Shown: positions 5,411 through 28,218 of the stretch, piece by piece | Layout: each line of letters opens with the position of its first letter | Numbering within the stretch: the first letter of the stretch is position 1 | From: Chloroflexota bacterium | GTDB lineage: Bacteria; Chloroflexota; Limnocylindria; Limnocylindrales; CSP1-4 | Direction: 5' to 3' | NCBI GenBank assembly: GCA_040882345.1 | Contig: JBBEBL010000220.1 | Span: forward strand, 21,773-62,981 | DNA: 41,209 nt | Position numbers and translations under genes: made by a program | Notes under the pieces: generated by a model | What the model was told of the DNA's origin: nothing | Database searches by the model: none | Seen by the model: the letters and a program-made list of their open reading frames with translations, nothing else

Positions 5411-5884
5411 TCAGGCGGGTCCGCGGACCACCACGACCGGACATGGAGCGTTGCGCACCACGTGGTCCGACACGCTGCCGAAGAGGGAACGGTTGACGCC
5501 GGTCCGGCCGTGCGTGCCCAGCACGATCAGGTCCGCGCGCTCGGCGTCGGCGGCGTCCACGATCGCCTCGCCCGGGACGCCCTCCCAGACCAGGAACGCC
5601 GTGGGGATCCCAAGGTCGCGAGCCCGGGCCACGAGCCGCTGCGCGGCGGACTCACGTTCGTCGCGGACCTGGTCCATGCGGGCATGGAACCGCCCCCCGG
5701 GCAGGCGGAGTGAGCCTGGATCGATGACGCTCACCGCGACCAGCCGGGCACGCAGACTGGCGGCGAGGCGCAGCGCCTCGTCCTCGGCCGGTGTCGAGGT
5801 CGCGGACAGGTCCGTCGCGAGGAGGACCGTGGCGATCGGGACGCTGGCGCGCGATGGGGAGCGAGCTTCGGACGGCGATGCCAT
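5411..5884 (-). CDS. Universal stress protein (UspA family)
   Basis: TVLLATDLSATS...AIVDAADAERADLIVLGTHGRTGVNRSLFGSVSDHVVRNAPCPVVVVR. Alternative starts at 5893/5896. Confidence 0.93.
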   Translation of the reverse strand: MASPSEARSPSRASVPIATVLLATDLSATSTPAEDEALRLAASLRARLVAVSVIDPGSLRLPGGRFHARMDQVRDERESAAQRLVARARDLGIPTAFLVWEGVPGEAIVDAADAERADLIVLGTHGRTGVNRSLFGSVSDHVVRNAPCPVVVVRGPA

Positions 5885-5920
5885 GCCCGGCATCATGGGC
5901 GCGGTCGCGCGAGGCACATA

Positions 5921-5956
5921 GTGACCAGCGGCCCGGTCACGGGGGCCATCGGTCAC
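5921..5956. promoter_or_regulatory. Pair of DevR/DosR-box-like sites in the divergent usp/kinase promoter region
   Basis: GTGAC-CAGC-GGCCC (5921-5934) and GGGCC-ATCG-GTCAC (5943-5956) resemble GGGAC-N4-GTCCC. They are inverted copies of each other, 22 bp apart. Confidence 0.6.
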
Positions 5957-6001
5957 CTTGGGACGCGTGCCGATGCGTGACCGCGGTACGCTGCGCGGTG
6001 C

Positions 6002-7186
6002 ATGGACGACGACGACAGGGACCGCGGGCCGGGCCTCGCGGCCGAGACCATCGAGGCGCTGGACGAGGCGACGCGGGCGATCTCGGAGGTGCTGGACCTC
6101 GAGTACGTCCTGCAGCTCATCGCCGACCGCGTGGCCACCCTCGTGGACGCCCGCTATGCCGCGCTCGGCATCGCCGATATCAATGGGCGGATGGAGCGCT
6201 TCATCACGACCGGGCTGACGCCGGAGGAGCGTGCGGCCATCGGCCCGCTGCCGGTGGGTCACGGGCTGCTGGGCCTGATCATCCGTGAAGGTCGGTCGTT
6301 GCGGACTGCGGATATCTCCGCCCACCCCGACTCGGTCGGCTTCCCGCCGCACCATCCGCCGATGCGCTCCCTGCTGGGGGTGCCGATCATCGTGGCAGGA
6401 CAGCCCATCGGCGACCTCTACCTCACGGACAAGCGCCACGCTGCGGAGTTCACCGAGGCTGATCAACGGGTCGTGGAGCTGTTCGCCCGCCACGCCGGCA
6501 TCGCCATCCAGAACGCCCGACTGCACGATCGGCTGGCCGCGCTGCGGGTCGTGGAGGAGCGCGAGCGGATCGGGCGCGACCTCCACGACGGCGTCATCCA
6601 GGGCCTCTATGCGGTCGGGCTGTCGCTGGAGGATGTCGACCTCCTGGTGGAGACGGCGCCGGACGAGGCCGCCGCCCGGATCGATGCGGCGATCGATGCC
6701 ATCCATCGCTCCATCGCCGACATCCGGGAGTTCGTGACCGGACTTCGCCCGGGGATGAGCGGCGCCGGCCTGGCCTCCGGGATCGCGGCGCTGGCCGACA
6801 GCCTGCGGCTGACGACCACGATCGATGTGGAGACCCACGTCACGGCGAGCCGGGAAGAGTTGTCGTTCCTGGACGATGCCGCTCGCCATGAGCTCCTCCA
6901 CCTGGTCCGCGAGGCCCTCAGCAACGTCAGCCGTCATGCCAGAGCGACGCGGGCGGAAGTGCGACTCGAGAGGGCAGGGGATGACCTGCGCCTGGAAGTC
7001 CGCGACAATGGCGTGGGATTCGATCCCGCATCCGTCGCATCGGGGGGCCATCATGGACTCGTCAACGTTCGCGAACGAGCTGCCGCAACGGGCGGGAGGC
7101 TCGAGATCGACAGCCGGCCGGGCGGCGGCACCCGGGTCATCGTCCATGTGCCCATCACCGACGCCATCGAGGGAACGCCATCGTGA
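6002..7186 (+). CDS. GAF-domain sensor histidine kinase, DevS/DosS/DosT-like (HisKA_3 + HATPase_c)
   Basis: GAF segment GHGLLGLII...SVGFPPHHPPMRSLLGVPI...GDLYLT matches the DevS heme GAF. H-box ERIGRDLHDGVIQGLY, N-box REALSNVSRHARA, DNGVGF, HHGLVNVRERA. Confidence 0.92.
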   Translation: MDDDDRDRGPGLAAETIEALDEATRAISEVLDLEYVLQLIADRVATLVDARYAALGIADINGRMERFITTGLTPEERAAIGPLPVGHGLLGLIIREGRSLRTADISAHPDSVGFPPHHPPMRSLLGVPIIVAGQPIGDLYLTDKRHAAEFTEADQRVVELFARHAGIAIQNARLHDRLAALRVVEERERIGRDLHDGVIQGLYAVGLSLEDVDLLVETAPDEAAARIDAAIDAIHRSIADIREFVTGLRPGMSGAGLASGIAALADSLRLTTTIDVETHVTASREELSFLDDAARHELLHLVREALSNVSRHARATRAEVRLERAGDDLRLEVRDNGVGFDPASVASGGHHGLVNVRERAAATGGRLEIDSRPGGGTRVIVHVPITDAIEGTPS

Positions 7187-7863
7187 CTGACACCACACCC
7201 ACCGCCGTCCTGCGCATCCTGGTCGTGGACGACCACGAGGTCGTTCGCCAGGGACTCGTGTCGCTGCTCGACCGGCGCGACGGATTCCAGGTGGTGGCGG
7301 AAGCGGGCACGGTCGCCGAGGCGATCGACGCCGCCCGGCGGTTCAGGCCGGACATCGTCGTCATGGACGTGCGCCTCCCGGACGGCAGCGGCGTGGAGGC
7401 CTGTCGGGAGATCCGGGCGGAGCTCCCGGAGACGCGCGTCGTGATGCTCACGTCATACCCGGACGAGGAGGCGGTCCTGTCCGCGATCGTCGCCGGCGCC
7501 TCCGGGTACCTCCTCAAGCAGATCCGCGCGAGGGACCTGATGGCCGCGCTGGAGACCGTGGGCCGAGGCGGCTCCCTGCTGGATCCAGCCGTCACGGAGA
7601 AGGTCCTGGAGCGGATCCGGCGGATCGCGACCGGCGGCCAGTCGGACGAGCTCGCCGCGCTCACCGCCCAGGAACAGCGGATCCTGCTGCTCGTGGCGGA
7701 GGGCAAGACGAACAAGGAGATCGCCGGCGAGATCTTCCTGTCCGACAAGACCGTCAAGAACTACGTCAGCTCCATCCTGTCCAAGCTCAACCTGGAACGG
7801 CGCGCCCAGGCGGCGGCCTTCGTCGCCAAGCACCGACTGGACGGCCCGCACTCCGGGTCCTAG
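7183..7863 (+). CDS. NarL/LuxR-family response regulator, DevR/DosR-like
   Basis: VVDDHEVVRQGL, MDVRLPDGSG, LTSY, GYLLK. HTH NKEIAGEIFLSDKTVKNYVSSILSKLNLERRAQAAAF closely parallels DosR. GTGA overlap with the kinase gene. Confidence 0.95.
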   Translation: MTDTTPTAVLRILVVDDHEVVRQGLVSLLDRRDGFQVVAEAGTVAEAIDAARRFRPDIVVMDVRLPDGSGVEACREIRAELPETRVVMLTSYPDEEAVLSAIVAGASGYLLKQIRARDLMAALETVGRGGSLLDPAVTEKVLERIRRIATGGQSDELAALTAQEQRILLLVAEGKTNKEIAGEIFLSDKTVKNYVSSILSKLNLERRAQAAAFVAKHRLDGPHSGS

Positions 7864-7927
7864 GCGGGCCGCGGGGCGAACGTCGCCGCGGGGCGAACCC
7901 AGGTCGCGGCCCGCGGCAGGCGACCGG

Positions 7928-8107
7928 TTCGGTTCCAGTGAATGTTGGTGGGCTCAAGGTCGTGTCTGGCGACTCGCGTCGATGGCTCCCTGACGCCTCT
8001 TCATCCACGGTGAATGCCGAGCTCGCTGGCGCGACCGATGGCCGATCCGATCGGCCGGCGAGCTGACCTTCACGCGCCTCGGCCTGTCAACGTTCAGCGA
8101 CACCGAA
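7928..8107 (+). repeat. Long imperfect hairpin element in a convergent intergenic gap
   Basis: 7939-7953 TGAATGTTGGTGGGC pairs with 8082-8096 GCCTGTCAACGTTCA (15 pairs including 4 G-U), plus outer TTCGGT/ACCGAA. Confidence 0.4.
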
Positions 8108-8235
8108 TCCCATCGCGGCGCCGGGCTGCGGGGCGCGAGCGCTTCACCACGGGCGAACACGGAGCCCGCCCCGGCGGTGGCAACGCGCCACACGACGGCG
8201 AGCACGTCCCACGCCACGGTCCGGCGGCCAGGCGG

Positions 8236-8545
8236 TTACCCCTTCGCGAGGACGAGCAGGAACTCCAGCGCGCCATCGTCCGCGATGGACACGATGAAGC
8301 CGCCGACGTTGGGTGCCGTGATCTCGAAGTCGGCGAGCGGGAACGTCAGTGAGCCCGCGACTCGGATCCGACCGTCTGCCAGCTGCACCTGGGCCGGGAT
8401 CTGCACGGACCGGGTGACGCCGTGAAGCGTCAGGTCGCCGTGAAGCGTCAGGTCCGTTGGCGAGCCCTCCATGGCCGCGGCCGGGATGTCCATCGGCGCG
8501 GTGACCTCGAAGGTCGCCGTCGGGAACCGGTCCGTCTCCAGGCCC
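8236..8545 (-). pseudogene. C-terminal half of a YceI-family (polyisoprenoid-binding) protein, 5'-truncated
   Basis: [11 protein letters not shown]...GDLTLHGVTRSVQIPAQVQLADGRIRVAGSLTFPLADFEITAP is YceI-like. In-frame sequence further upstream is non-homologous and runs into the mrp promoter region. Confidence 0.7.
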
Positions 8546-8702
8546 TCGGATGTGTACGGGACAGGGCGGCCCGACGAGCGTACGTTCGCAGACTTCGCTG
8601 AAGAACGCGGCGAGAGGCGATCAGCCCCCGCCATCTCCACCGGCTGGGTATGCTGGGGCGACCGATGCCCGCCCTTCAGCCCTCCTCCGGGCACCGCTCG
8701 TC

Positions 8703-11066
8703 GTGACCGGAACCCACCTGGCCCTCGCGGTGGTCTTCGCGGCCGCCGTCCTCGTGCCGCTCCTGTGGCGGCTGAATGCCCGCGCCGGGCGTGCCGTGGG
8801 CGTCTTCGTCCCGGCGGCCTTGACCGCGTACTTCGTGGCGATCGCGCCCGCGGTCCTGCGCGGGGAGCCGGAACGAGGCGTCGTCCCGTGGGTCCCGGCG
8901 CTTGGCGTCGACCTGGCCGTGAACGTGGACGGCCTGGGCCTCCTGTTCGCCCTACTCGTATGCGGGATCGGGGCGTTGGTGCTGCTCTTCTCCGATGCGT
9001 ACCTCCACGGCGACCCACGCCAGGGCCGCTTCACCGGGATCATGCTCGCGTTCCTCGCCTCCATGCTGGGCCTGGTCGTCGCCGACGACCTGTTGCTCGT
9101 CTACGTGTTCTGGGGCCTGACCGGCCTGACCTCGTTCCTGCTCATCGGCTTCGACCACGAGCGTCGCTCAGCTCGGGACGGCGCGAACCAGGCATTCCTC
9201 CTGACGGCGGCGGGCGAACTGGCGATGCTGGCCGGGTTCGTGCTCCTGGCCGGGATCGCGGGCACGGGCCGCCTTTCGGAGATGGCCGGGGCCGCGGAGG
9301 CGGCCAGCCTGCGGACCCACGCGCTGTACGTGCCGACCCTCGTCCTCATCCTGGCGGGTGCCCTGACCAAGTCGGCGCAGGTCCCGTTCCATTTCTGGCT
9401 ACCCAACGCGATGGAGGCTCCCACGCCGGTCTCCGCCTACCTCCATTCCGCCACGATGGTCAAGGCCGGGGTCTACCTCATCGCCCGCCTGGCCCCGATA
9501 CTGGCGGCCACCGGGGCATGGGTCGGCATCCTCACCGTCGTCGGCGCGGCGACCCTGGTCCTCGGCGCCTGGATGAGCCTGGGTCAGACGGACCTGAAGC
9601 GGATCCTCGCCTACTCGACGGTCGCCGCGCTGGGCCTGATGGTCCTGCTACTGGGCCTGGATACGCCGGAGGCGAGCGTCGCCGCGATCGCCGTGTTGCT
9701 GGCCCACGCCGCATACAAGGGCGCGCTGTTCCTGGTGGCAGGTTCCATCGACCACGGGGCCGGCACGCGCGACGTCACCCGCCTGGGTGGTCTCCGGGGC
9801 GCGATGCCGCTGACCGCGACGGCCGGCCTCATCGCCGCCGCGTCGATGATCGGCCTGCCCGGGTTGCTCGGGTTCATCGGCAAGGAACTCGCGTACAAAG
9901 CGACGCTGGACGTGGTCGGTGCCGCCGTCGTGGTGACCGCGGTCGTCGTGGCGGCCGGGATCGCCTTCGTGGCCGTCGCCGGGATCACCGGTGTGCTGCC
10001 CTTCTTCGGCCGCACGGATGCCGGGACCGGGACCGGGGCCGACGCCCACGAAACCCCGGCGCGCATGTGGGTCGCACCGACCGTCCTCGCCGCCATGGGG
10101 CTGGTCGCCGGCATCGCGCCATCCCTGTTCGCCGGTCCGCTGATCGCGGCCGCCGCTTCGGATGTGGTGGGTGGCCCGATCGACGCCAAGATCCTGCCCT
10201 GGTATCCGCCCGACCTCGCGCTCGCGTTGAGCGTGGTCACGGTGCTGGCCGGGCTCGGCCTGCTGGTGGCGCGGCGCCAGGCGAGGAGCACCGTCACGCG
10301 GCTGGACGTCGGGGAGCGGCTCGGGCCGGAGCGAGCGTGGGAAGGCCTGGTGACCGGCACCGTCCGGTTCGCCGGGGTTGTGTCGGCCACCTCGCAGACC
10401 GGGCGACTGCGCCAGTACATGCTCATCGTCTTCGTCACGACGACCGTGCTGGCGTGGGGCGTGGTCGCCCTCCTGGGCGGGCTGCCGGCGCTGGAGCCAT
10501 CCACCGACGTGCGGTTCTGGGAAGTCGGCGCGGCCGGCGCGATCCTCGTCGGTGCGTTCGTCGCGTTACGGGCGGATTCGCGTCTGAGCGCCGTGGCCGC
10601 CCTCGGGGTCGTCGGCTATGGCATCGCGCTCGTCTACCTGCTGTTCGGAGCGCCGGACCTGGCCATGATCCAGGTCTTGATCGAGACCCTGATCATCATC
10701 CTGTTCGTGCTCGTGTTCCACCACCTGCCGCGCTTCGTGACGGTCTCCTCATCCGCCTCCCGGATGCGCGATGCCGTCGTGGCGCTCGCGGCGGGGACCC
10801 TGATGGGGACCCTCGTCCTGGCGACGAGCGTCCGCCCTCACGAGGCGATCTCCTCCTTCTTCCTCGAGGCGAGCTACCTGGAGGCGCGGGGACGAAACGT
10901 CGTGAACGTCATCCTGATCGACTTCCGCGGGCTCGACACCCTCGGGGAGGTGACCGTCCTCGCCGTCGCGGGCATCGGCGTGTTCGCGCTGCTGAAGCTG
11001 CGCCCGGACCGTCGGGCCGACCGGGTCCAGGCCGGCGCGGGCGCGGCCGCAGAGGAGCGCTCGTGA
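8703..11066 (+). CDS. mrpA: Mrp/Mnh Na+(K+)/H+ antiporter subunit A
   Basis: [86 protein letters not shown] 8703 start is an estimate; the ORF is open from 8550. Confidence 0.95.
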
Positions 11067-11476
11067 GCGGCATCATCCTCCCGACCGCGACGAAGGTGCT
11101 GCTGCCTCTGCTCCTGCTGTTCTCGCTGTTCCTGCTGCTTCGCGGGCACGACGAACCGGGCGGGGGATTCGCCGGCGGCCTGGTGGCCTCAGCCGCGTTC
11201 GCCCTGCTGGCCACCGCGTCCGGGGTCCCGAACGCCCGGCGCGTGCTCCACGTGGATACGAGGACCCTGATCGGGGTGGGACTCGCCCTCGCGCTCGCGA
11301 GCGGCCTGGTGGGTCTCGTCGGCGGATCTGGGTTCCTTGCCTCGGTGTGGCTGGACCTGGCGCTCCCGGACGGCACGCCGTTCTACGCGGGCACGACGCT
11401 GCTCTTCGACCTTGGCGTCTATCTCGTCGTCGTGGGCTCCGTCCTGACCATCGTCTTCGCCCTGGAGGAGGAGTGA
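11063..11476 (+). CDS. mrpB: Mrp antiporter subunit B
   Basis: [17 protein letters not shown]...[19 protein letters not shown] overlap with mrpA; this is the real 3' part of track ORF 8471..11476. Confidence 0.93.
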
Positions 11477-11477
11477 C

Positions 11478-11825
11478 GTGGCGACCGTGCTGGCGATCGT
11501 CATCGGCGGACTCTTCGCGGCCGGCGTCTACCTCATGCTGCGCCGCAGCCTCGTGAAGCTGGCCCTCGGGTTGAGCCTCATCGGGAACGCCGCCAACCTG
11601 CTCATCTTCACGGCCGCCGGACTCGTCCGGGGGGAGCCACCGCTGGTGCCCGCGGGCGCCGAGACGCCACCGCCCGGGGTCGCGGACCCGCTGCCCCAGG
11701 CCCTGATCCTGACCGCCATCGTCATCGGTTTCGGTGTCCTCGCGTTCACCCTCGTCCTGCTCCATCGGGCCTACCAGGAGACCGGCTCGGACGACCTTGA
11801 CGACCTGTCGTCGTCGGACCGATGA
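11478..11825 (+). CDS. mrpC: Mrp antiporter subunit C
   Basis: [12 protein letters not shown]...[18 protein letters not shown]. Confidence 0.95.
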
Positions 11826-13333
11826 CGATCCTGTTGATCCTGCCCATCGTCATCCCCCTCGGCGCGGCCGCGCTCGCGCTGCTGTCATGGCGCTCCCCCG
11901 TCCGGCAACGGGTGATCGTGCTGATCGGCACGGCCGCGCTGCTCGCGGCGGGCATCGCCCTGCTCGTGGAGGTCGAGCGGGTCGGCGTCATGGCGCTGAC
12001 GGTCGGCGGGTGGCAGGCCCCGTTCGGCGTCACCCTCGCGGCCGACCTGCTCAGCGCGATCATGATCGTCATCACCGGGGTCATCGGCGTGGCCGTTGCC
12101 GTCTATGGCCTGGCGACCGTGGACGGCCGGCGCCAGTCGTTCGGCTATCACCCGCTCTACGCGATCCTGCTTGTGGGGGTCTGCGGCGCGTTCCTGACCG
12201 GCGACATCTTCAACCTGTACGTCTGGTTCGAGGTGATGCTCATCGCCTCCTTCGTGCTCCTGGCCCTCGGCGGCGATCGGGCCCAGCTGGAGGGGGCCCT
12301 CAAGTACGTCGCCCTCAACCTCGTCGCGTCGGCGCTTTTCCTGTCCGGGGCGGGACTGCTGTACGGCGTTGCTGGGACCCTCAACATGGCGGACCTCGCG
12401 GGAAAGCTGTCCGTGGTGGAGCCGACCGGCCTGGTGACAGCCATCAGCGTCCTGTTCCTCGTGGCATTCGGGATCAAAGCCGCGGTCTTCCCGCTGTTCT
12501 TCTGGCTGCCCGCCTCGTATCACACGCCGCCGGTCGCCGTATCCGCCGTCTTCGCCGGACTGCTGACCAAGGTTGGGGTCTATGCGCTGATCCGCGTCTT
12601 CACGCTGGTCTTCACGGGCGATGCATCCACCATCGACGCCATCCTGCTGGTGACGGCGGCACTGACCATGGTCGTCGGTGTCCTTGGTGCGGTGGCCCAG
12701 CACGAGTTCCGGCGCGTGCTGTCGTTCCTCATCGTCAGCGGGATCGGGTTCATGGTCATGGGCCTTGCGCTCCACACGCCACTCGCTCTCGCGGGCTCCA
12801 TCCTCTACATCATCCATGGCAGCATCGCGAAGACGAACCTGTTCCTCGTCGGCGGTGCAGTGGAGCGCCTGGCCGGGACCGGAGCGCTCGTGCGTCTCGG
12901 TGGGTTGTGGGCCCTCCGACCCGGCCTGGCGGTCCTCTTCCTCATCCCGGCGATGTCCCTCGCCGGGATCCCGCCGCTGTCTGGCTTCTTCGCGAAGCTG
13001 GCGCTGGTCCAGGCCGGGCTCGCCATACAGCAGTACGCCATCGTGGGCGTCGCGCTCCTCGTCAGCCTGCTCACCCTGTACTCCGTGCTGAAACTCTGGA
13101 ACGAGGCGTTCTGGAAGGCGGCTCCCGACGACGACCCGGCGGCGGGCTCGGCGCCGCACGACCTGACGGCGCGACTCGACCGGCGGATCACCATGCCGAT
13201 GGTCGCGCTGGCCGCCTGCACCATCGCGATCAGCGTGGCAGCGGAGCCGATGTTCGGCCTCGCCATCCGGGCCGCGGACCAGCTGATGGACCCGACCGCC
13301 TACATCGCCGCCGTGCTGGGAGCGACGCCGTGA
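11822..13333 (+). CDS. mrpD: Mrp antiporter subunit D
   Basis: [70 protein letters not shown]. Confidence 0.95.
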
Positions 13334-13803
13334 CCATGTTCGCCGCGAACCTGTTGCTCGCGCTCGCCTGGGTCGCGATGTCCGGCCAGTTCAGTGCCGC
13401 GAACTTCCTGCTGGGCTTCGCCTTCGGCTATATCGCGCTCCTGGTCACCAGGCGGTCGATCGGTCGGACGTCGTATTTCGGGCGCACGGTGCGCCTGGCG
13501 TCGTTCGTCGCCTTCTACCTGCGTGAGCTCATCCTCGCCAACCTGCGGGTCGCGTACGACGTCGTCACACCCACGCATCACATGCATCCGGGCATCGTCG
13601 CCGTACCCCTGGACGTCCGCAGCGATGCCGAGATCACGCTGCTGGCGAACCTGCTGACGATGACCCCCGGCACGCTCAGCCTGGACATCTCGGACGATCG
13701 GACGACGCTCTACGTGCATGGGATGTTCGTGGAGGATCCCGAGGCATTCCGTCGCGAGATCAAGGACGGCTTCGAGCGGCGCGTGTTGGAGCTCCTGCGA
13801 TGA
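13330..13803 (+). CDS. mrpE: Mrp antiporter subunit E
   Basis: [14 protein letters not shown]...PGIVAVPLD...[16 protein letters not shown]...LYVH. Confidence 0.94.
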
Positions 13804-14461: not shown

Positions 14462-14508
14462 TCAGCCGACGGCGACGGCGCTCGCCGCGAGGTTCCCGGA
14501 TCCCGCGA

Positions 14509-19274: not shown

Positions 19275-19290
19275 TGGGCGGGTGACGATC

Positions 19291-20178: not shown

Positions 20179-20181
20179 CCG

Positions 20182-20520
20182 GTGGCCCGCCTCGTCGTCA
20201 TCGCCGGCCCGGCGCTCGCCGACGGCTTCCGCCTCGCGGGATCCGCGACGGTGACGGCGCGCCCGGGCACCGAGGCGCTCGCGGCGGTCCGCAGCGTCCT
20301 GGCCGAGGGGGACGTGGGGCTCGTCCTGGTGACCGCCGACCTGTGGGCCGGACTCGAGGATCGCCTCCGCGACACACTCGAGCACTCGGCGCGGCCGATC
20401 GTCCTGCCGATCCCCGCCGGGGTCGTCACCGACCCGACGACGCGGCGCCAACTCCTCGGCGAGATGCTCGAACGGGCGATCGGGTATCGCATCGAGCTGT
20501 CCGGGGGGGAGCGGTCGTGA
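20182..20520 (+). CDS. atpF: V/A-type ATP synthase subunit F
   Basis: LVVIAGPALADGFRLAG...PIVLPIP...MLERAIGYRIEL. Confidence 0.92.
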   Translation: MARLVVIAGPALADGFRLAGSATVTARPGTEALAAVRSVLAEGDVGLVLVTADLWAGLEDRLRDTLEHSARPIVLPIPAGVVTDPTTRRQLLGEMLERAIGYRIELSGGERS

Positions 20521-22313
20521 CCGGGCGCGCGGCGCACGGAACGGTGGCCGGTGCCGTGGGACCCGTCGTCCGGGCGGTCGGACTCGATGACGCGGTGGTC
20601 GGGGAGGTCGTCCACATCGGCCGGCAGCGGCTCCTCGGCGAGATCATCGGCCTGGCCGGGGGCGATGCGACGATCCAGGTCTACGAGGAGACGGGAGGCC
20701 TCCAGGTCGGCGACCCGGTCGCGCTGACCGGAGCACCGCTCCGGGCGAGGCTCGGACCCGGACTCCTGGGCGCGACGTTCGACGGCCTCCAGCGGCCGCT
20801 CGATCGGCTGGCGCACGCCGGACGCTGGCTTCTCCTCCCCGGCGCCGCCGGCGAGGCCGGTGCAGCGGGCACGACAGGCACGCCCGGTGGCGCCGACGCA
20901 CGCCGCTGGCGCTTCGAGCCCGGTCGGCGCACGGGCGACGCGGTCGTGGCCGGCGACGTGCTCGGAACGGTGGTCGAGGGCCCGATCCATCACCGGATCC
21001 TCGTCCCGCCGGACGTCCCCGGAGGGACGATCCGCGACCTCGATCCCGGGAGCTACGGTGCGGACGAGCGGATCGGCCGGCTCGAGACCGGGACGGGACC
21101 GGTCGATCTGCGTCTCAGCCACGACTGGGCGATCCGGCGACCACGACCCGCCCGCCGACGCCTCGGTGCGGAGCGACCTCTCGTCACCGGTCAGCGGGTC
21201 TTCGACATGCTCTTTCCGATCGCGATGGGCGGGACGGCGGTCATCCCCGGCGGCTTCGGGACCGGCAAGACCGTCGTCGAGCAGGCCCTCGCGCGCTGGT
21301 CGGACGCGGATGTCGTCGTGTATGTCGGGTGCGGCGAACGCGGCAACGAGATGGCCGAACTCCTTGCAAGCTTCCCGGATCTGGTCGATCCCCGGACCGG
21401 CGACCCGCTCCTCGCCCGGACGGTCCTCATCGCGAACACGTCGAACATGCCCGTCGCGGCGCGCGAGGCATCGGTCCAGCTCGGGATGACGATCGCCGAG
21501 TACTTCCGTGATCAGGGTCTTGCCGTCGCGCTCCTCGCAGACTCGACGAGCCGCTGGGCCGAGGCGCTCCGGGAGATCAGCGGCCGGCTCGAGGAATTGC
21601 CCGGTGAGGAGGGTTTCCCGGCATATCTCGGGAGCCGGCTCGCGGCCTTCTACGAGCGTGCCGGTCGGGTCGAGGCGCTCGGCACCCCGGAGCGGATCGG
21701 ATCGATCACCCTCGTCGGGGCCGTCTCTCCTCCGGGTGGCGACTTCAGCGAGCCGGTGACCCAGGCGAGCCTCCGCCTCGCCGGGACGTTCTGGGCACTC
21801 GATGTCGGTCTCGCCCATGCCCGGCACTTCCCGGCGGTCGGATGGACGCAGTCGTACTCGCTCTACGTCGACGCCCTGTCGACGTGGTACGCGGACCACG
21901 TCGATCCGGCGTGGGCGGAGCGTCGGGCGGAGGCGATCGGGTTGCTCGCACGAGAGAAGCAGCTCCTCGACATCGTGCAGCTCGTCGGCGCCGATGCTCT
22001 GCCCACCGCGGACCGGGTCGACCTCGAGACCGCCCGGCTCATGCGCGAGACGTTCCTTCAGCAGCACGCCTTCGATCCTGTCGACGCCTCGCGGCCTCTC
22101 GACGTCCAGTTCGGCCTCCTCCGGGCGGTCCTCGCGGCGAGGACGGGCCTGCGCGCCGCGCTCGACCGGGGCATCACCCTGGAGACGGCGCTCGAGGCGC
22201 CGGCCCTCGACGAGCTCCGCCGAGCGCGGTACTGGGCGGGCGACGACGTCGAGCCACGCCTCGCGGAACTGACGGAGCGGCTCCTCGCACTCGGTGGGGA
22301 GATCGGGTCATGA
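20517..22313 (+). CDS. atpA: V/A-type ATP synthase catalytic subunit A
   Basis: [11 protein letters not shown]-loop [59 protein letters not shown]. Confidence 0.97.
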
Positions 22314-23698
22314 CCCTCTCGAAGCGCCGTCTCCGCGGCGTCGAGCGTCTCTCCGGACCGCTCCTCGTCGTCCGCCGGGCGCCGGGCGTCGCGCTCGGCG
22401 AGGATGTCCGCGTCGAGGGTGTCGACGGCGCGGTCCGGCATGGCCAGGTCGTCGAGCTCCAGCCCGATCTCGCGGTCGTCCAGGTGTACGAGGGGACCGC
22501 CGGCCTCGCCCTTGATTCGACGCGCGTCGAGCTGACCGGCCAGCCGTTCCGGCTGGGCGTCACGTCGCGGATGCTCGGGCGGGTCATGGATGGCCGTGGG
22601 CGTCCCATCGACGACGGCCCGCCCATCACGCCGCTCGTCCTCGCCGATGTGAACGGCGGCGCGATCAACCCGGCCTCGCGCGATCATCCGTCCGACCTCA
22701 TCGAGACCGGTGTCAGTGCGATCGACCTCCTCGCCAGCCTCGTCCGCGGCCAGAAGCTGCCGATCTTCACCGGCGCCGGACTCCCTGCGAACGGCCTCGC
22801 GGCCCGCATCGCGACGGGAGCACGGGTCCTGGGCGAGGAGCGCTTCGTCACGATCTTCGCGGCGATGGGGATCACCCGCCGGGAGGCGGACTTCTTCCGG
22901 GAGGCGTTCGCGAGCTCCGGCACTCTCGATCGCCTCGCGTTCTTCCTCAACCTCGCCGACGACCCGACGATCGAGCGCCTCCTCACGCCGCGGTGCGCGC
23001 TGACCCTTGGCGAGCATCTCGCGTTCGAACTCGGACTGAACGTCCTCGTCGTCCTGACCGACGTGCTCGCGTACGGCGAGGCGCTCCGGGAGCTCGGCAC
23101 CGCGCGCGAGGAGATCCCGAGCCGGCGCGGGTACCCCGGCTACCTCTACACCGACCTCGCGACGCTCTTCGAGAGGGCGGGACGGGTCCACGGCCGGCCG
23201 GGCTCGCTCACGATCCTGCCGATCGTGACGATGCCGGACGACGACATCACGCATCCGATCCCCGATCTCACCGGCTACATCACGGAGGGGCAGATCGTCC
23301 TGTCGCGTGACCTTCACGGTCGCGGTGTCGAGCCGCCGATCGACGTGCTGCCCTGCCTCTCCCGCGTAATGAACGCCGGTATCGGCGAGGGGCGGACCCG
23401 GCCCGAGCACCGGGCGGTCGCCGACCAGCTGTATGCCCTGTATGCGAGAGGCAGGGAGCTGCGCAATCTGGTCACGGTCATCGGCGAGGCGGCGCTCTCG
23501 GCCTCGGAGCGGCGGATCCTCGACTTCGCCGACCGGTTCGAGCTCGTGTTCGTCGGCCAGGGCGTCGAGCGGCGGACACTCGACGAGAGCTTCGACGTCG
23601 CATGGCGGCTTCTCGGAACGCTGCCGCGCGAGGAGCTGACCCGGCTGCCGGCCGATGTCGTCGACGCGAACCTCGGGACACCGGAGGTGGGCGGGTGA
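22310..23698 (+). CDS. atpB: V/A-type ATP synthase subunit B
   Basis: VRGQKLPIF, NLADDPTIER, PSRRGYPGYLYTDLATLFERAG, MPDDDITHPIPDLTGYITEGQI. Confidence 0.97.
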   Translation: MTLSKRRLRGVERLSGPLLVVRRAPGVALGEDVRVEGVDGAVRHGQVVELQPDLAVVQVYEGTAGLALDSTRVELTGQPFRLGVTSRMLGRVMDGRGRPIDDGPPITPLVLADVNGGAINPASRDHPSDLIETGVSAIDLLASLVRGQKLPIFTGAGLPANGLAARIATGARVLGEERFVTIFAAMGITRREADFFREAFASSGTLDRLAFFLNLADDPTIERLLTPRCALTLGEHLAFELGLNVLVVLTDVLAYGEALRELGTAREEIPSRRGYPGYLYTDLATLFERAGRVHGRPGSLTILPIVTMPDDDITHPIPDLTGYITEGQIVLSRDLHGRGVEPPIDVLPCLSRVMNAGIGEGRTRPEHRAVADQLYALYARGRELRNLVTVIGEAALSASERRILDFADRFELVFVGQGVERRTLDESFDVAWRLLGTLPREELTRLPADVVDANLGTPEVGG

Positions 23699-24333
23699 GC
23701 CGGGCCGCGACACGGATGGCGCTTCTCACGGGCCGATCCCGGCTCGCGCTGGCACGTCAGGGACGCGACCTCCTCGAGCAGAAGCGGGACGCGCTCCTCC
23801 GCGAGTTCTACCGGGACGTGCGGACGATCGTCGCCCAGCGCGACGAGCTGGAGGCGGCGGCCGGAGCCGCCCGCGTCGCCCTCGACTCCGCCCGGGTCTG
23901 GCTCGGTCAGGAGCAGGTGGCGGCTGCCGCCCTCGCCGCGACCGGCGAGATCGCCGTGGAGCTCGATCCGACGACCGTCATGGGCGTGCCGGTCCCCGCC
24001 GTCACCCCGCGCGACCTCGTGCGCCGCCCATCCGCACGGGATCGCTCTCCGCACGTCTCGGGACCCAGTCTCGAGGTCGTCGCGCAGCGCTTCGAGGAGG
24101 AGCTGACGATCGCGATCCGTCTCGCGACGATGGAGGCACGCGTGCGGCGGCTCGCCCGGGAGATCCGTCGGACGAGCAGCCGCGTGAACGCCCTCCGGAC
24201 GCGAGTGATCCCGGGCCTCGAGGCGGACACGCGAGCCATCGAGCTCGGCCTCGAGCAGCGCGAGCGGGAGGATCGCTTTCGGCTCAAACGGGTGAAGGCG
24301 GCGCGCGCCCGTGCCGGCACGGCCGCCCGGTGA
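23695..24333 (+). CDS. atpD: V/A-type ATP synthase subunit D
   Basis: ATRMALL...ARQGRDLLEQKRDAL...RRTSSRVNAL...LEQREREDRFRLKRVK. Confidence 0.95.
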   Translation: MSRAATRMALLTGRSRLALARQGRDLLEQKRDALLREFYRDVRTIVAQRDELEAAAGAARVALDSARVWLGQEQVAAAALAATGEIAVELDPTTVMGVPVPAVTPRDLVRRPSARDRSPHVSGPSLEVVAQRFEEELTIAIRLATMEARVRRLAREIRRTSSRVNALRTRVIPGLEADTRAIELGLEQREREDRFRLKRVKAARARAGTAAR

Positions 24334-24461
24334 CGGGCGGTCTCGTCGGCCAGCCGAGCGCAGGCGCGGGCCGGGTCGACGGCGAGGAACGCGTGCAGGT
24401 GCGCACCGGCCGCGAGCGTCTCGCCGGTTCGAAGGGCCTAGGGCCAGCGCGATCCCATAAC

Positions 24462-24587
24462 TGGGTCGGGCGCTGGACGGCGGAGGAGGGGCGCCACGCC
24501 ATCGTCCTCCGCGACTGTCTGACCGTCACGCGGAACATCGATCCCGTACTCATCGAACGGGGTCGGATGACCCAGCTCCAGCAGGGG
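24462..24587 (+). pseudogene. Internal fragment of an acyl-ACP desaturase (ferritin-like di-iron, DesA-type)
   Basis: WVGRWTAEEGRHAIVLRDCLTVTRNIDPVLIERGRM matches the WTAEExRH first iron-binding helix of acyl-ACP desaturases. No start codon and no second ExxH nearby. Confidence 0.7.
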
Positions 24588-24644
24588 CCGTTTGGCCCGG
24601 TCTGGTCCCATGCCGGTCCCGGCCTGCCGTGACCCGCGGCACTG

Positions 24645-24660
24645 ATGCGCAGATGCGCAT
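24645..24660. promoter_or_regulatory. Palindromic operator candidate for the ArsR regulator
   Basis: ATGCGCA-GA-TGCGCAT, a perfect 7-2-7 inverted repeat directly upstream of arsR. Confidence 0.65.
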
Positions 24661-24678
24661 GTGTCCGATGCTCTGGTC

Positions 24679-25029
24679 ATGGACGAGATCACCATCCTCC
24701 AGGCTGAAGTCCTCAAGACCCTGGCCAGTCCGCGCCGGCTCGAGATCCTGCACCGACTCGCCGATGGCCCGCGCGAAGTGGGCCGCCTGGCCGCCGACCT
24801 CGGCCTGAGCCAGCCCAACGTTTCGCAGCACCTGGCCGTCATGCGTGCGGCCGGGATCGTGGACGCCGAGCGCGTGGGCCGCGAGGCCCGCTACCGCCTG
24901 TCCGATCCGGACGTGATGGTCGCGTGCGGCGTCATGCGCGCCGTCCTGGAGCGTCGACTTCACCGCCTGGCCGCGCTCTCCATCAGTCACGAGTCATCGC
25001 CACCCATCGCCAGCGCACGCACGAGGTAG
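24679..25029 (+). CDS. ArsR/SmtB-family transcriptional repressor
   Basis: LKTLASPRRLEIL...LSQPNVSQHLAVMRAAGIVDAERVGREARYRL; single Cys in the C-terminal helix. Alternative GTG start at 24661. Confidence 0.92.
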   Translation: MDEITILQAEVLKTLASPRRLEILHRLADGPREVGRLAADLGLSQPNVSQHLAVMRAAGIVDAERVGREARYRLSDPDVMVACGVMRAVLERRLHRLAALSISHESSPPIASARTR

Positions 25030-25037
25030 CCCGACCC

Positions 25038-25451
25038 ATGGACGAATCCATCAACCTGGTCCTCTTTTCCGGTACGGACGACAAGCTGCAGGCCGCCGCG
25101 GTCCTCGCCGCCGGCGCCGCGGCCCTCGGCAAGCCGGTCAACATCTTCCTCCAGTACTGGGCGCTTGACGCGTTCCGCGCGGACCGCATGAACCGTGACC
25201 ACGGCCTTGCCCCGGAGGCCGGTCCGGAGGGCCGCAAGGCCGTGGATGCCCTCGCGGCGGCCGGCCAGGCCAGCTGGGCTGACACGCTCCGCCAGGCCAA
25301 GGAACTGGGCTCCGTTGACATCCAGGCGTGCTCGCTGTCCATGGACCTGCTGCACCTGGAAGACGCGGACCTGGACTCCCTCGTGGATGGCGTGGAAGGC
25401 GTGACCTCCTTCTACCTCAACGCCGGCGAGGGCCAGCTCGTATTCATCTGA
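25038..25451 (+). CDS. DsrE/DsrF/DrsH-like (DrsE_2) sulfur carrier
   Basis: LVLFSGTDDKL...GAAALGKPVNIFLQYWAL...IQACSLSMDLL...GVTSF...LVFI. Confidence 0.88.
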   Translation: MDESINLVLFSGTDDKLQAAAVLAAGAAALGKPVNIFLQYWALDAFRADRMNRDHGLAPEAGPEGRKAVDALAAAGQASWADTLRQAKELGSVDIQACSLSMDLLHLEDADLDSLVDGVEGVTSFYLNAGEGQLVFI

Positions 25452-25486
25452 CCACACGACCCACCGACCACCATAAGGAGCCTGCC

Positions 25487-25723
25487 ATGGCAACACTCGA
25501 GATCACCCAGACTGTTGACGCCAAGGGCCTGTCCTGCCCGATGCCCATCGTCAAGACGGCCCAGGCCGTCAAGACGCTCGCATCCGGCGCGCTGCTGGAG
25601 GTCCTGGCCACGGACCCGGGGTCCGTCAAGGACTTCGCCGCGTGGTCTCGTTCCACCGGCAACGAGCTCGTCGAGCAGACCGTGGACGGCGCGGTCTTCC
25701 GCTTCGTCATCCGTCGGAAGTGA
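25487..25723 (+). CDS. tusA: TusA/SirA-family sulfurtransferase (CPMP)
   Basis: VDAKGLSCPMPIVK...LEVLATDPGSVKDFAAW; AAGGAG RBS. Confidence 0.93.
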   Translation: MATLEITQTVDAKGLSCPMPIVKTAQAVKTLASGALLEVLATDPGSVKDFAAWSRSTGNELVEQTVDGAVFRFVIRRK

Positions 25724-25731
25724 GGCCAGCC

Positions 25732-26301
25732 ATGACCACCGCGATCCTTGAACCAGCAGTCGATGCCGATGTGCCCGTCGCCCTTCCGGCGACCGAACCA
25801 GCCCCGGCGCCGGACGGTGCCGTTCGACCCAAGGACATCCTGATCATCGATTTCAGCGGCGACCTGGAGAAGGTCTGGGCGACCATGATCCTGGCCTCCA
25901 CGAGCGCCGCCATGGGCGTGAAGACCCGGGTCTTCGTGACCTTCTGGGGCCTGCCCGTCTTCGTCAAGGACTCGAAGCGGATCACGGGCGAGAACTGGAT
26001 GCAGAAGATGCTGTCCGCCATGCAGCGTCCCGGGATCAGCCACCGCAAGCTCAGCTCGATGAACTTCCTTGGCATGGGGCCATGGATGATGCGCCAGCTC
26101 GCGAAGAAGTACCACGTGGCGAGCCCCAAGGAACTCCTGGAGGCCGCCCAGCTCATGGGCGTCGAGTTCATCCCGTGCCAGATGACCATGGACATGTTCG
26201 GGCTCAAGCCGGACGACATGATCGAGGGCATGAGCGAGCCCGTCGGCGCCGCCACCGTCATCGGCCTGATGACGGAAGACTCCGTCCCCCTGTTCATCTG
26301 A
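25732..26301 (+). CDS. DsrE2/YrkE-like sulfur carrier
   Basis: FSGDLEK...AAMGVKTRVFVTFWGL...LSSMNFLGMGPWMM...IPCQMTMDMFG...GAAT...LFI. Confidence 0.9.
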   Translation: MTTAILEPAVDADVPVALPATEPAPAPDGAVRPKDILIIDFSGDLEKVWATMILASTSAAMGVKTRVFVTFWGLPVFVKDSKRITGENWMQKMLSAMQRPGISHRKLSSMNFLGMGPWMMRQLAKKYHVASPKELLEAAQLMGVEFIPCQMTMDMFGLKPDDMIEGMSEPVGAATVIGLMTEDSVPLFI

Positions 26302-26330
26302 ACGACCAAGCGAAGGAACGCGTGAGCGAC

Positions 26331-26576
26331 ATGACCGAAACCGCCGTGACCATCACCCGCACCGTCGACGCCCGCGGCAGCTTCTGCCCGGGACCGTTGA
26401 TGGAGCTCATCCGTGCCATCCGCGAGAGCGAGGTCGGTGACGTGCTCGCCGTCCTGTCCTCTGACAAGGGATCCAAGGCGGACATCCCCAAGTGGGTGGA
26501 GAAGGCCGGCCATCGCCTGGTCACCCTCGAAACCCGCGACGGCTACGACGAGATCGTCGTCGAGAAGCTCCGGTAA
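26331..26576 (+). CDS. tusA: Second TusA-family sulfurtransferase (CPGP)
   Basis: VDARGSFCPGPLMELIRAI...VLSSDKGSKADIPKW. Confidence 0.92.
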   Translation: MTETAVTITRTVDARGSFCPGPLMELIRAIRESEVGDVLAVLSSDKGSKADIPKWVEKAGHRLVTLETRDGYDEIVVEKLR

Positions 26577-26586
26577 GGGGGCCACC

Positions 26587-27744
26587 ATGCAGCGCATCGT
26601 CATCCTGGGCGGCGGGGTCGGGGGGACCCTGACCGCGAACCTCCTGAGTCGCAAGCTGAAGAAGCCGATCGACGCCGGCGACGTCGAGGTCGTCGTCGTC
26701 GACGCCACGGGGAGCCACGTCTATCAACCCGGCTTCATGTACATCGCCATGGGCGGCGAGCGAGCGGCCAACCTCGCCCGGCCGGAGCGGTCGCTCCTGG
26801 ACAAGCGCGTGACGCTGCTGGTCGGCGAGGTCGTCGCCGTGGATGAGTCCCGCCAGCACATCGAACTCGCTGACGGCATGTCGCTTGGCTATGACCAACT
26901 CGTCCTCGCGACGGGATCGCGCATCGTGCCGGAGGCCATCGAGCACTTCGCGGAGGAGGCCCACCACTTCTACACGGCGGAAGCCGCGTCTCGATTGCGC
27001 ACCGCGCTCGACGCGTTCACCGGCGGCCGGATCGTCATCGGCATCGCGGGGATGCCCTACAAGTGCCCGCCGGCACCCCTGGAGGTCGCGTTCCTCATCG
27101 AGTCGGAGCTGCGCGACCGGGGTCTGCGCGACGCGTCAGAGCTGCACTTCTGCTCGCCGATCGGGCGCGCCTTCACCATCGAGAGCGTGTCCGACATGGC
27201 GACACCGATCCTCGAGGAGAAGGGCATCGATCTGCACACGTTCTTCAACGTCGAGACGATCGACCCCGAGCGCAAGGTCGTCCAGAGCCTGGAAGGGGAG
27301 GAGCTGCCGTACGACCTGCTCATCCTCGTGCCGCCGCACAAGGGCCAGCAGTTCCTGATGGACTCCGGCCTGGCGCCGGCGCCCGGGGGCTGGCTCCCGA
27401 CGGACCGGCATACCCTGGAGGTCGGCGGCCGGCCCAACGTGTATGCGCTGGGCGACGCCACGGACCTGCCGCTCTCCAAGGCCGGGTCCACGGCCCACTT
27501 CGAGGCCCCCGTGGTCGCCGAGCGGATCGCCGCCCGGGTGATGGGCCGCGCGCCCTCCGGCAAGCATGCCGACTACGAGGGCAAGGTCATGTGCTTCTTC
27601 GAGATCGGTGACGGCAAGGGCACGCTCCTCCAGTTCGACTACGAGCACCCGCCCAAGCCACCGAAGCCGAACCAGTTGTGGCACCTTGGCAAGATCGTCT
27701 TCAACAAGACGTACTGGCACACGGTCCCCAAGGGCCGGGTCTGA
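26587..27744 (+). CDS. sqr: Sulfide:quinone oxidoreductase-family flavoprotein (short, type III-like)
   Basis: GGGVGG FAD motif, HVYQPG, YKCPPAPLE, YALGDATD, SKAGSTAHFE, YEGKVMCFFE; 385 aa. Confidence 0.85.
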   Translation: MQRIVILGGGVGGTLTANLLSRKLKKPIDAGDVEVVVVDATGSHVYQPGFMYIAMGGERAANLARPERSLLDKRVTLLVGEVVAVDESRQHIELADGMSLGYDQLVLATGSRIVPEAIEHFAEEAHHFYTAEAASRLRTALDAFTGGRIVIGIAGMPYKCPPAPLEVAFLIESELRDRGLRDASELHFCSPIGRAFTIESVSDMATPILEEKGIDLHTFFNVETIDPERKVVQSLEGEELPYDLLILVPPHKGQQFLMDSGLAPAPGGWLPTDRHTLEVGGRPNVYALGDATDLPLSKAGSTAHFEAPVVAERIAARVMGRAPSGKHADYEGKVMCFFEIGDGKGTLLQFDYEHPPKPPKPNQLWHLGKIVFNKTYWHTVPKGRV

Positions 27745-27783
27745 GCCGGGACGCGACGCGGCATCTGCCGGGGAGGCATGACG

Positions 27784-28218
27784 ATGTTCAGGAAGATCCT
27801 GCTGGCCGTCGACGGTAGCGAGGCGTCCCTCGGGGCGGCTCGCGCCGCCGGTCGGCTCGCCGCAGAGACCGGGGCCGAGATCCGGCTCCTCACCATCCAC
27901 GACGCCCCGAGCGCCGTGCTCGGCGAGCCCGGCTACTCGGCCGTGCTGAACCGGGCGCTCGCGGAGGCGGAGGACCACCTCGCCACGGCCGCCGCCGCGA
28001 TCGTGGGCGTCGGGGGACCCGAGCCCGCGCGGGACAAGCTGACCGGCCACCCGGCCGAAGCCATCCTGACCGCGGCCGATGCCGGCGGCCACGACCTGGT
28101 CGTCGTGGGCAACCGTGGCCGCGGTCGGATCGCGGGGGCGCTGCTCGGGTCCGTGTCCAGCGCGATCGCGTCCCGGGCACGCATCCCCGTCCTGATCATC
28201 CCGCACGACGCGGGGTAG
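27784..28218 (+). CDS. Universal stress protein (UspA family)
   Basis: MFRKILLAVDGS...DLVVVGNRGRGRIAGALLGSVSSAIASRARIPVLII; GGAGG RBS. Confidence 0.93.
   Translation: MFRKILLAVDGSEASLGAARAAGRLAAETGAEIRLLTIHDAPSAVLGEPGYSAVLNRALAEAEDHLATAAAAIVGVGGPEPARDKLTGHPAEAILTAADAGGHDLVVVGNRGRGRIAGALLGSVSSAIASRARIPVLIIPHDAG

Follow-up and report, generated by a model that had tools for sequence, protein, structure and literature searches.

DosR-type control of dormancy has been described mainly in mycobacteria and streptomycetes, and the DosR regulon of Mycobacterium tuberculosis is rich in universal stress proteins (Usp) and CBS proteins. In that species, the kinases DevS (DosS) and DosT act with the regulator DevR (DosR), which is autoregulated through tandem phased boxes; PMC3177182 gives such tandem boxes as the hallmark. 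In Streptomyces coelicolor, the regulator of the OsdK/OsdR system is encoded within a cluster of its own targets, with usp genes as prime targets and AGGGCCGATCGGCCCT as the consensus, as far as the available sections of PMC5069765 describe them. Here, we analyzed a 41,209-nt stretch of Chloroflexota DNA (hereafter the window), in which positions 5411-28218 hold a usp gene, a DevS/DevR-like pair, an Mrp antiporter operon, a ybaK gene pair, a V/A-ATPase operon and an SQR sulfur relay operon. From its homologies and motifs, this region probably represents the core locus, variable in content, of a hypoxia/redox regulon of the DevS/DevR (DosR/OsdR) type in Chloroflexota. An initial annotation had proposed that the whole neighborhood could be one coordinated module, which is supported at the promoters of usp1/kinase, ybaK/CBS'-ATPase and arsR-SQR-usp2, where DevR/OsdR-type boxes were found, whereas Mrp falls outside and the site itself is a mosaic.

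The host is an uncultured high-GC sediment bacterium, probably of the lineage Limnocylindria, represented by a fragmented metagenome-assembled genome (MAG) of 3.0 Mb in 274 contigs (87% complete), and the window lies on a contig of 70.6 kb. Since the window has a GC content of 71%, genes were called from six-frame open reading frames (ORFs) scanned against Pfam and NCBIfam. These scans bore out the gene list and order of the initial annotation as well as its gene scraps at the joints, namely a 3' remnant of yceI and an internal desaturase fragment; the gene calls are rough. The comparison comprised 60 genomes of the same genus, a draw of 400 genomes from the class, the flank-to-flank interval from 36 of at least 41 same-genus genomes with both flanks on one contig, searched with the window proteins, and the surroundings of 12 V/A-ATPase loci from 8 genomes of other genera. 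Among the public runs listed, 15500-24500 occurs in three DNA sediment metagenomes of one study (X1, X2 and X3) and in no RNA run.

At the left end of the region, usp1 (5411-5896, minus strand; Pfam Usp, E 5e-32) is divergent from the gene of a 394-aa sensor kinase with a GAF-HisKA_3-HATPase_c architecture (6002-7186, plus strand), which is overlapped by the gene of a REC-GerE response regulator (7183-7863, plus strand). By their sequences, these are true relatives of DevS/DosT and DevR/DosR/OsdR, as the initial annotation had supposed. The GAF domain (residues 32-177 aligned) matched the GAF-A domains of DevS and DosT with E 8e-38 to 1.5e-36 (2Y8H, 2W3D and 2VZW; phmmer against the PDB) and keeps the residues aligned to the proximal heme histidine (PPHHPPMR versus PPYHPPMR) and the distal tyrosine (LYLTDK in both), which we take to be DevS His149 and Tyr171, the numbering coming from chain length. 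In the alignment, a glycine stands at the position of DevS Glu87, a replacement that presumably confers DosT-like O2 binding. We infer a heme-type sensor, predicted to bind heme and to respond to O2, NO or CO. For the regulator, the best solved-structure match was DevR (3C3W, E 5e-59, compared with 2e-45 for VraR), and the recognition stretch KTVKNYVS is identical to that of DevR, including the Lys/Lys/Asn residues of the recognition helix that we assume to contact DNA. The pair thus shares with the M. tuberculosis system the heme-type GAF-A, the HisKA_3 core, a NarL/LuxR regulator and the same recognition stretch, while its host belongs to the Chloroflexota and not to the Actinomycetota. No second kinase of this type and no second DevS/DevR-like pair was found in the assembly, where the next regulator paralogues are 37-39% identical. 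Orthologues of usp1 adjoin the kinase gene in five relatives (G015, G017, G044, G065 and G113), and in all five relatives checked among those lacking the pair at this site, a DevS-like GAF kinase is encoded elsewhere in the genome.

Footprinting of the spacer between usp1 and the kinase gene in five genomes revealed a conserved palindromic block of two 14-bp elements, 22 bp apart (5921-5934 and 5943-5956), which predicts an autoregulation like that of DevR. The element GGGCC-ATCG-GTCAC has a 5+4+5 layout, as does the DosR box, with half-sites of GGGCC/GKCMC here as opposed to GGGAC/GTCCC in M. tuberculosis. It resembles the OsdR consensus AGGGCCGATCGGCCCT (PMC5069765), also 5+4+5, which is nearly the same box. 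After variants at 15571 and 24629 had been seen in the window, the pattern was generalized to GKGMC-N4-GKCMC, which matched nine times in the window (3.3 expected; nine reached in 2 of 100 shuffles). Seven of the nine matches lie in three intergenic regions: the two boxes at 5921 and 5943; three at 15571, 15594 and 15637 in the spacer between ybaK and CBS'-atp (span 15571-15650, spacings of 23 and 43 bp); and two at 24585 and 24629 (span 24585-24642, spacing of 44 bp), after which comes a ATGCGCAGATGCGCAT repeat, also conserved, in front of arsR.

Genome-wide, 212 boxes were counted, 29% of which fall into the non-coding 19% of the sequence (p = 2e-4 with a rough gene caller). Clusters of at least two boxes within 70 bp are rare, as there are only seven of them (eight pairs) in the genome, three of which are located in this region; 20,000 random placements gave 1.04 pairs on average and never more than 7, so that eight pairs were not reached once. 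The spacings of 22, 22, 23, 23, 23, 40, 43 and 44 bp correspond to two or four helical turns. Moreover, the exact word GGGCCATCGGTCAC occurs five times in the genome, compared with approximately 0.08 expected from our own composition estimate. The DevR/OsdR-type boxes are likely candidates for regulator binding sites. Exact matches were the informative ones for the related pattern GTGACC-N3-GGCCC, which with up to 2 mismatches stayed at chance level (50 versus 45). A CTAGGGCC/TTAGGGCC motif (4 matches, 0.7 expected) was dropped as a separate signal because two of its matches overlap Dev-type boxes and the other two are arms of a dispersed repeat.

Outside the region, the four remaining tandem clusters precede a ferrochelatase gene, a CBS-HycI unit (hydrogenase maturation) and a gene for a NirK-like multicopper protein beside Rrf2, or lie in the spacer between POR and DEAD-helicase genes. 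The word GGGCCATCGGTCAC was found outside the window before a tandem Usp gene, before GroEL-CBS, in the same POR-helicase spacer and in a spacer approximately 1.8 kb from a baeRF_family10 gene, and a variant box, GGGCCGCAGGTCAC, lies 85 bp before the archease gene. As a whole, the box-associated gene set reads like a DosR/OsdR regulon. The tandem boxes at ferrochelatase and between Rrf2 and the NirK-like multicopper/cupredoxin gene are located on contigs C58 and C242, which hints at heme synthesis and nitrite reduction in the same putative regulon. Contig C132 appears as a second hub of this putative regulon, carrying a paralogous pair of ybaK and the 156-aa gene discussed below, GroEL-CBS, archease, and CBS-HycI next to HypC and a PAS kinase, and several of these genes have Dev-type boxes. 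An exact GGGCCGAACGGCCC box, a form discussed below, was also seen at position 14422 of contig C220, approximately 7.4 kb before the window start, in sequence called non-coding.

The right-hand pair of boxes stands before the operon arsR-dsrE-tusA-dsrE2-tusA-sqr-usp2 (24661-28218, plus strand). Its SQR has a Pyr_redox_2 domain, matches human SQOR with E 4e-35 and contains cysteines at YKCPPAP and VMCFFE, which we take to be the catalytic redox cysteines; as to an assignment to type III, the best NCBIfam model, SQR_III_seleno, scored 339 bits, below its cut-off of 525. Both TusA proteins carry the CPxP motif. In its layout, the operon resembles the SqrR/BigR/sHdrR/SoxR systems, in which an ArsR-family gene heads a dsrE/tusA/sqr operon and a conserved repeat operator lies at the promoter, and which belong to a class of ArsR-type sulfane-sulfur repressors according to the available parts of PMC12423496 and PMC10451225. 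The ArsR protein of this locus has one cysteine in 122 residues and reached 53.9 bits with the BigR model (cut-off 155). As paired sensing cysteines are presumably required in the SqrR/BigR persulfide sensors, it is not a canonical two-Cys sensor of this kind, and the two DevR-type boxes just upstream are a further difference. In an alignment of the arsR promoters of eight genomes, GTGACCnnnGGCAC is kept beside an ATGCGCA repeat, presumably the ArsR operator, and several of these genomes have a GGGCCGAACGGCCC box 44 bp upstream of GTGACCnnnGGCAC. The box before arsR designated B was present in 10 of 10 same-genus genomes with the operon. The last gene, usp2, starts 33 nt after sqr and probably rides on the sqr operon. 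At this site, the SQR operon counts as a stable occupant.

The middle boxes lie between two divergent units. To their left, on the minus strand, are the gene of a YbaK-like aminoacyl-tRNA deacylase (14976-15500; Pfam tRNA_edit, E 2e-20, with a weak match to NCBIfam YbaK_EbsC) and, downstream of it, the gene of a 156-aa protein (14509-14979), which is possibly baeRF-like. While the gene is indeed present, its initial label baeRF finds no Pfam family at E ≤ 0.1 and is a structural lead only, with a TM score of 0.61 to an aRF1 cluster, the aligned part lying in PF18854 (eRF1 core/baeRF_family10), and with feature matches of 0.77-0.79 to Host_attach/baeRF_family12, which are leads only as well. 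In the accessible part of PMC6514570, baeRF families are linked to ribosome hibernation. The 156-aa gene lies 50-70 bp from ybaK in the genomes G274 and G317 and occurs in G113 without a ybaK match, and the paralogous pair on contig C132 is 55% (ybaK) and 44% (156-aa protein) identical.

To the right of the middle boxes, a short protein with one CBS domain (CBS'; 15838-16140, plus strand) is encoded by a gene whose stop overlaps the start of atpH, the first of nine V/A-ATPase genes in the order G/H-I-K-E-C-F-A-B-D (16140-24333, plus strand), which is also that of the Thermus thermophilus and Enterococcus hirae Ntp enzymes. The operon thus encodes a full subunit set with catalytic P-loop and rotor carboxylate. 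In the A subunit, the P-loop GGFGTGKT is intact, and the protein matches its Pyrococcus and Thermus counterparts with E 1e-184 to 1e-186 and E. hirae NtpA with 1e-167. The K subunit is a single 70-aa hairpin with a Q...PET motif, as opposed to the duplicated NtpK of E. hirae (PMC2359735), and Gln...Pro-Glu-Thr is kept in the K subunits of 11 relatives. In known Na+ rotors, Gln...Glu-Thr side chains coordinate Na+ (PMC2359735), so the ligands may be compatible with Na+ coupling here, though they are not decisive for the coupling ion. The initial annotation had asked whether the genome has an F-type ATPase as well, and it does encode one elsewhere, with the gamma and beta genes on contig C223 and the alpha gene on C177. 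In contrast to known V/A-ATPases, the enzyme of this locus coexists with an F-type enzyme, is accessory and strain-variable, and has a DevR-type box upstream.

Relatives of the A subunit reach 79% identity at best, and those from Chloroflexota or 'Candidatus Limnocylindrales' MAGs are approximately 70% identical. Within the class draw, the same family contributed 137 other genomes, ten of which have a relative (eight at 67-73% and two at 48-49% identity), compared with none of 28 same-genus genomes and none of 263 genomes of four other families, a distribution that may reflect vertical retention with losses or transfer within the family. Of nine other V/A-ATPase loci, which are mutually related and do not count independently, seven have a GGGCCGAACGGCCC box (up to 2 mismatches allowed) 419-487 nt upstream of atpI, equivalent to approximately 100-115 nt before atpH where this was mapped. 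Two of these boxes match exactly, two deviate at one position and three at two, at a background of 0.005 per 100 nt for up to 2 mismatches.

The promoter in front of the ATPase has a history of its own. The segment 15633-15767, including the third box, has its homologue in G023 at the 5' edge of PFOR-alpha, and CBS' has lost approximately 36 internal residues with regard to its orthologues (138-155 aa), which are encoded between PFOR alpha and beta genes. The CBS gene of the initial annotation is therefore present, but with an internal deletion, and both findings indicate that the ATPase operon now stands behind a former PFOR-CBS promoter. No PFOR remnants were found in the window, where the one apparent match comes from the antisense strand of ybaK. 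The ATPase cassette ends on the right with 56 codons from within an acyl-ACP desaturase gene (24420-24587, plus strand; Pfam FA_desaturase_2 positions 95-142 of 325). A full-length copy of this gene on contig C104 is 79% identical to them over its aa 149-204; the fragment is absent from the relatives' loci.

Synteny in other genera supports a common neighborhood. In G113, an aminotransferase and CoA-transferase A and B genes (the same left flank) are followed by usp1, kinase and regulator; the middle part holds DnaJ, an ABC-2 permease, acetyl-CoA hydrolase, a 1387-aa PFOR, atpI-D, POR subunits and the 156-aa homologue; and on the right side, HypF, HypC and arsR-dsrE-tusA-dsrE2-tusA-sqr precede the right-flank aminotransferase. 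In G317 and G274, the V/A-ATPase occurs with ybaK, the 156-aa gene and PFOR-alpha-CBS-PFOR-beta as well as with acetate kinase, NiFe hydrogenase and cytochrome b, Hyp genes, hemerythrin and archease-RtcB. As the V/A-ATPase shares its neighborhood in other genera, the idea of a low-oxygen bioenergetic neighborhood is right at the family level, without Mrp. The expected linkage among relatives was thus found for ATPase, SQR and kinase in other genera, but not for Mrp, and the site varies within the genus.

On this basis, we propose the following mechanism. Low O2, or NO/CO, would be sensed at the single heme-type GAF domain of the kinase, which would phosphorylate the DevR-like regulator, and this in turn would bind phased 14-bp boxes of the GGGCC-N4-GKCMC type. 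Two boxes would autoregulate usp1 and the kinase/regulator operon, the three boxes between ybaK-(baeRF-like) and CBS'-V/A-ATPase would activate both units, and another two would activate the arsR-SQR relay operon, where the ArsR-type repressor, on release, might provide a second layer of control. The ATPase cassette would have been placed behind a Dev-box promoter that drives PFOR-CBS in relatives. On failure of respiration, the cell would switch on a second rotary ATPase along with stress proteins, factors for translation quality and shutdown, and functions for the detoxification of sulfide or the input of electrons. The ATPase might either consume ATP from fermentation to maintain an ion gradient or act as a synthase at low driving force, both being equally conceivable; use of fermentative ATP for the membrane potential is suggested by PFOR, acetate kinase and hydrogenase as neighbors in sister genera. 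The homologies, the positions and statistics of the motifs, the synteny and the indels are documented here, whereas DNA binding, induction at low oxygen, and the ATPase's coupling ion and working direction are what we infer. A more specific proposal is put forward tentatively, and it is somewhat less likely to be right than wrong: an uncultured Chloroflexota family would keep the V/A-ATPase as a conserved member of a DevR-type hypoxia regulon. The enzyme would have its own Dev box approximately 100 bp ahead of atpH, with PFOR, hydrogenase and SQR genes next to it, and would act either as an ion pump for times of dormancy or as a synthase that works at low driving force and is possibly coupled to Na+; strains would gain and lose it as a cassette.

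This reading has to be weighed against the nature of the site, since the region is an indel hotspot between conserved flanks, as the initial annotation had foreseen in its own counter-scenario. A CoA-transferase B gene forms the left flank in 52 of 60 same-genus genomes and a class-III aminotransferase gene the right flank in 55 of 60. Within the 36 intervals, usp1-kinase-regulator adjoins the left flank in four and dsrE-to-sqr the right flank in ten (arsR scored in seven of these), the latter also in G113; two genomes (G015 and G017) have both at the site. The CBS gene was found in six intervals, and yceI is native in 27 (two homologues being partial), right after the regulator or the left flank, while Mrp, V/A-ATPase, ybaK, the 156-aa gene and usp2 were found in none. 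Conserved flanks with variable content between them are an island-like trait. Of the classical island marks, no integrase or transposase family was detected by Pfam scan among ORFs of at least 110 aa in the window, no tRNA was found as island target, and a repeat search of 5300-28400 gave no flanking or shared long repeats. In G016, where the interval has shrunk to 250 bp, a 26-codon remnant of yceI survives (L042, 1020-1097), which indicates that the hotspot is shaped by deletions as well as insertions.

We consider it unlikely, though worth weighing, that the region is a pure hotspot mosaic of unrelated cargo, in which the boxes are chance GC-rich palindromes, sites of other regulators or parts of repeats, and DevR targets are limited to usp1 and the kinase operon. 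Several observations count against a regulon locus and, for the most part, in favor of such a mosaic. The flanks lie between 250 bp (G016) and 24 kb (G060) apart (23.0 kb in this genome), and the cargo of other species is varied: acetyl-CoA hydrolase, NiFe hydrogenase and PFOR-CBS-PFOR in G023; STAND adenylate cyclases, giant surface proteins and ECF sigma factors in G056, G046 and G051; aromatic catabolism in G020; and a sugar ABC system in G062. Part of it (aromatic catabolism, sugar ABC, STAND cyclases) is unrelated to hypoxia. As to the boxes, four of the nine window matches are circular and not independent, because the pattern was widened post hoc, and 151 of the 212 genomic matches to this degenerate, GC-rich pattern lie in called coding sequence of a genome with 71% GC. 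The canonical M. tuberculosis core GGGAC-N4-GTCCC, with up to 1 mismatch, gave three matches (six expected), none of them intergenic. The kinase has a single GAF domain (residues 38-177), where DevS has two in tandem, and the SQR operon has its own ArsR regulator.

Further points concern the ATPase. The V-type D-subunit family was found in 0 of 60 same-genus genomes, and a 2578-nt contig of run X3 joins 14534-15617 to 24584-25950 with 119 unmatched letters between them (56 of approximately 2450 aligned letters differ), which reveals a close strain, approximately 98% identical, that lacks CBS', the V/A-ATPase and the desaturase fragment (15618-24583). The V/A-ATPase is a dispensable, strain-variable occupant of the site, and since this strain lacks it and none of the sampled same-genus species was found to have it, it is not needed for the regulon. 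Box 3 (15637) was inherited from the PFOR promoter, while the boxes at 15571 and 15594 lie 70-95 bp from ybaK and may serve the ybaK operon only. No GGGCCGAACGGCCC box within 2 mismatches was present at the ATPase loci of G092 and MFD03726. The gene remnants at the joints fit the mosaic, too. It does not account, however, for the tandem phased boxes, of which three of only seven clusters stand exactly at the promoters of these modules, for the conservation of the arsR boxes and the atp box across genomes and genera, or for the synteny in G113 and, in part, in G274 and G317. The edges of the strain-variable cassette (15618 and 24583) themselves fall at Dev-type boxes.

The DevR-type regulon locus remains the reading that we favor, and it does not extend to the Mrp operon. 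Extended to its full form, the model of the initial annotation would have five modules including Mrp co-induced, with SQR feeding quinones, Mrp interconverting Na+ and H+ gradients, and a Na+-coupled V/A-ATPase using or building the gradient. This fuller model appears improbable. In its favor, the modules are contiguous within 23 kb, the mrp genes follow the regulator gene downstream on one strand, and Gln...Glu-Thr as in Na+ rotors is found in the K subunit and in all 11 K subunits read from relatives; ion specificity, however, is not readable from three ligands alone. The operon itself is an ordinary group-1 Mrp (Mnh/Pha; CPA3 cation/H+ antiporter) with seven genes, mrpA-B-C-D-E-F-G (8550-14461, plus strand), whose stops and starts overlap; the MrpA C-terminal part is of MbhD/MbhE type, MrpB is separate, and MrpA and MrpD are of the Proton_antipo_M type. 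Only its position, within yceI and inside the DevR locus, stands out. The gene mrpA begins where the 5' part of the native yceI would lie, and yceI is disrupted, with a 3' remnant left at 8239-8549 (minus strand; YceI profile positions 69-148 of 150).

MrpD (E ≤ 1e-60) and the MrpE family were found in 0 of 60 same-genus genomes, and Mrp was absent from the 12 V/A-ATPase loci of other genera, so that it was found in no relative examined, including those with the ATPase. No Dev-type box precedes mrp in approximately 900 nt (7850-8760), even at one mismatch. A few MrpD relatives are 76-91% identical, and the next tier, at 67% or less, is spread over many phyla. In 80 metagenomic Mrp loci (up to 68% identity), no ATPase, SQR, Usp or kinase genes were detected at E ≤ 1e-10, and one locus had a response-regulator match. 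Run X3 contains Mrp and ybaK at approximately 96.6-98% identity, although its strain lacks the ATPase cassette. Mrp is thus best read as an insertion into yceI that is separate from the other events and specific to this lineage, and as an independent acquisition for salt/pH or a Na+ cycle. The sequence gives no hint of control by DevR, and a place of Mrp in the initial module is not supported. As a minor difference, the X3 strain has nine extra letters, an in-frame length, at the overlap of the mrpA stop and mrpB start (window 11065).

That the locus is an assembly or binning chimera of different organisms, which the MAG's fragmentation and two modules unique within the genus might suggest and which the initial annotation had named as a counter-scenario, is hardly credible, as both flanks are the genus's conserved neighbors on one contig, GC is uniform (0.66-0.77 along the window), X2 and X3 contain the Mrp and ybaK parts at 96-99% identity, and independently assembled X1 contigs (Logan) bridge every module junction (regulator/yceI/mrpA, mrpG/156-aa gene, ybaK/CBS/atpH-I and atpD/arsR), X1 possibly being the source sample.

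If the proposed control holds true, a rotary ATPase would for the first time be placed under an oxygen switch of the DosR type, a regulon of this type would for the first time be described outside the Actinomycetota, and a well-studied survival programme would extend to abundant soil and sediment Chloroflexota. In a literature search for which most subscription journals were out of reach, nothing was found that ties DosR-type control to Chloroflexota or to a V-type ATPase, and no paper linked a V/A-ATPase, an SQR sulfur relay or ybaK with an eRF1-like gene to DosR. Compared with M. tuberculosis, these modules would be the additions to the putative regulon. Compared with OsdK/OsdR, the locus lies in a different phylum and in an indel hotspot, where some strains have the whole ATPase operon and others lack it, and bioenergetic machines that the available sections of PMC5069765 do not list are among the putative targets; the term 'ATP synthase' occurs 0 times in that paper. 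It would also give a testable reason for a V/A-type beside an F-type ATPase, namely membrane potential or ATP when respiration stalls, and the presence or absence of the cassette at the strain level would offer a natural experiment within the same sediments. In genome annotation, the adjacency of genes at a hotspot should not be taken as evidence of function; here, the motifs back usp1/kinase, ybaK/CBS'-ATPase and arsR-SQR, and they do not back Mrp.

Some features beside these modules are recorded here for completeness. A scan of 5300-25200 for sigma-70 promoters and terminators gave nothing above shuffles, and no Rfam family reached its gathering threshold in the window. Between usp2 and the aminotransferase gene, a 150-nt element (28255-28405) forms a long hairpin of -78.8 kcal/mol (z = -4.1). 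Approximately 15 full or partial copies of this dispersed repeat, 68-73% identical, lie on other contigs of the genome; the element is absent from the equivalent spacers of relatives and has no Rfam match. At the window start, which it runs off, a protein of approximately 600 aa is encoded at 2-1825 (minus strand), with a central GAF domain as its sole recognized part. To the right of the region, at 33682-35385, an MFS transporter is fused to a C-terminal cyclic-nucleotide-binding domain, an uncommon architecture.

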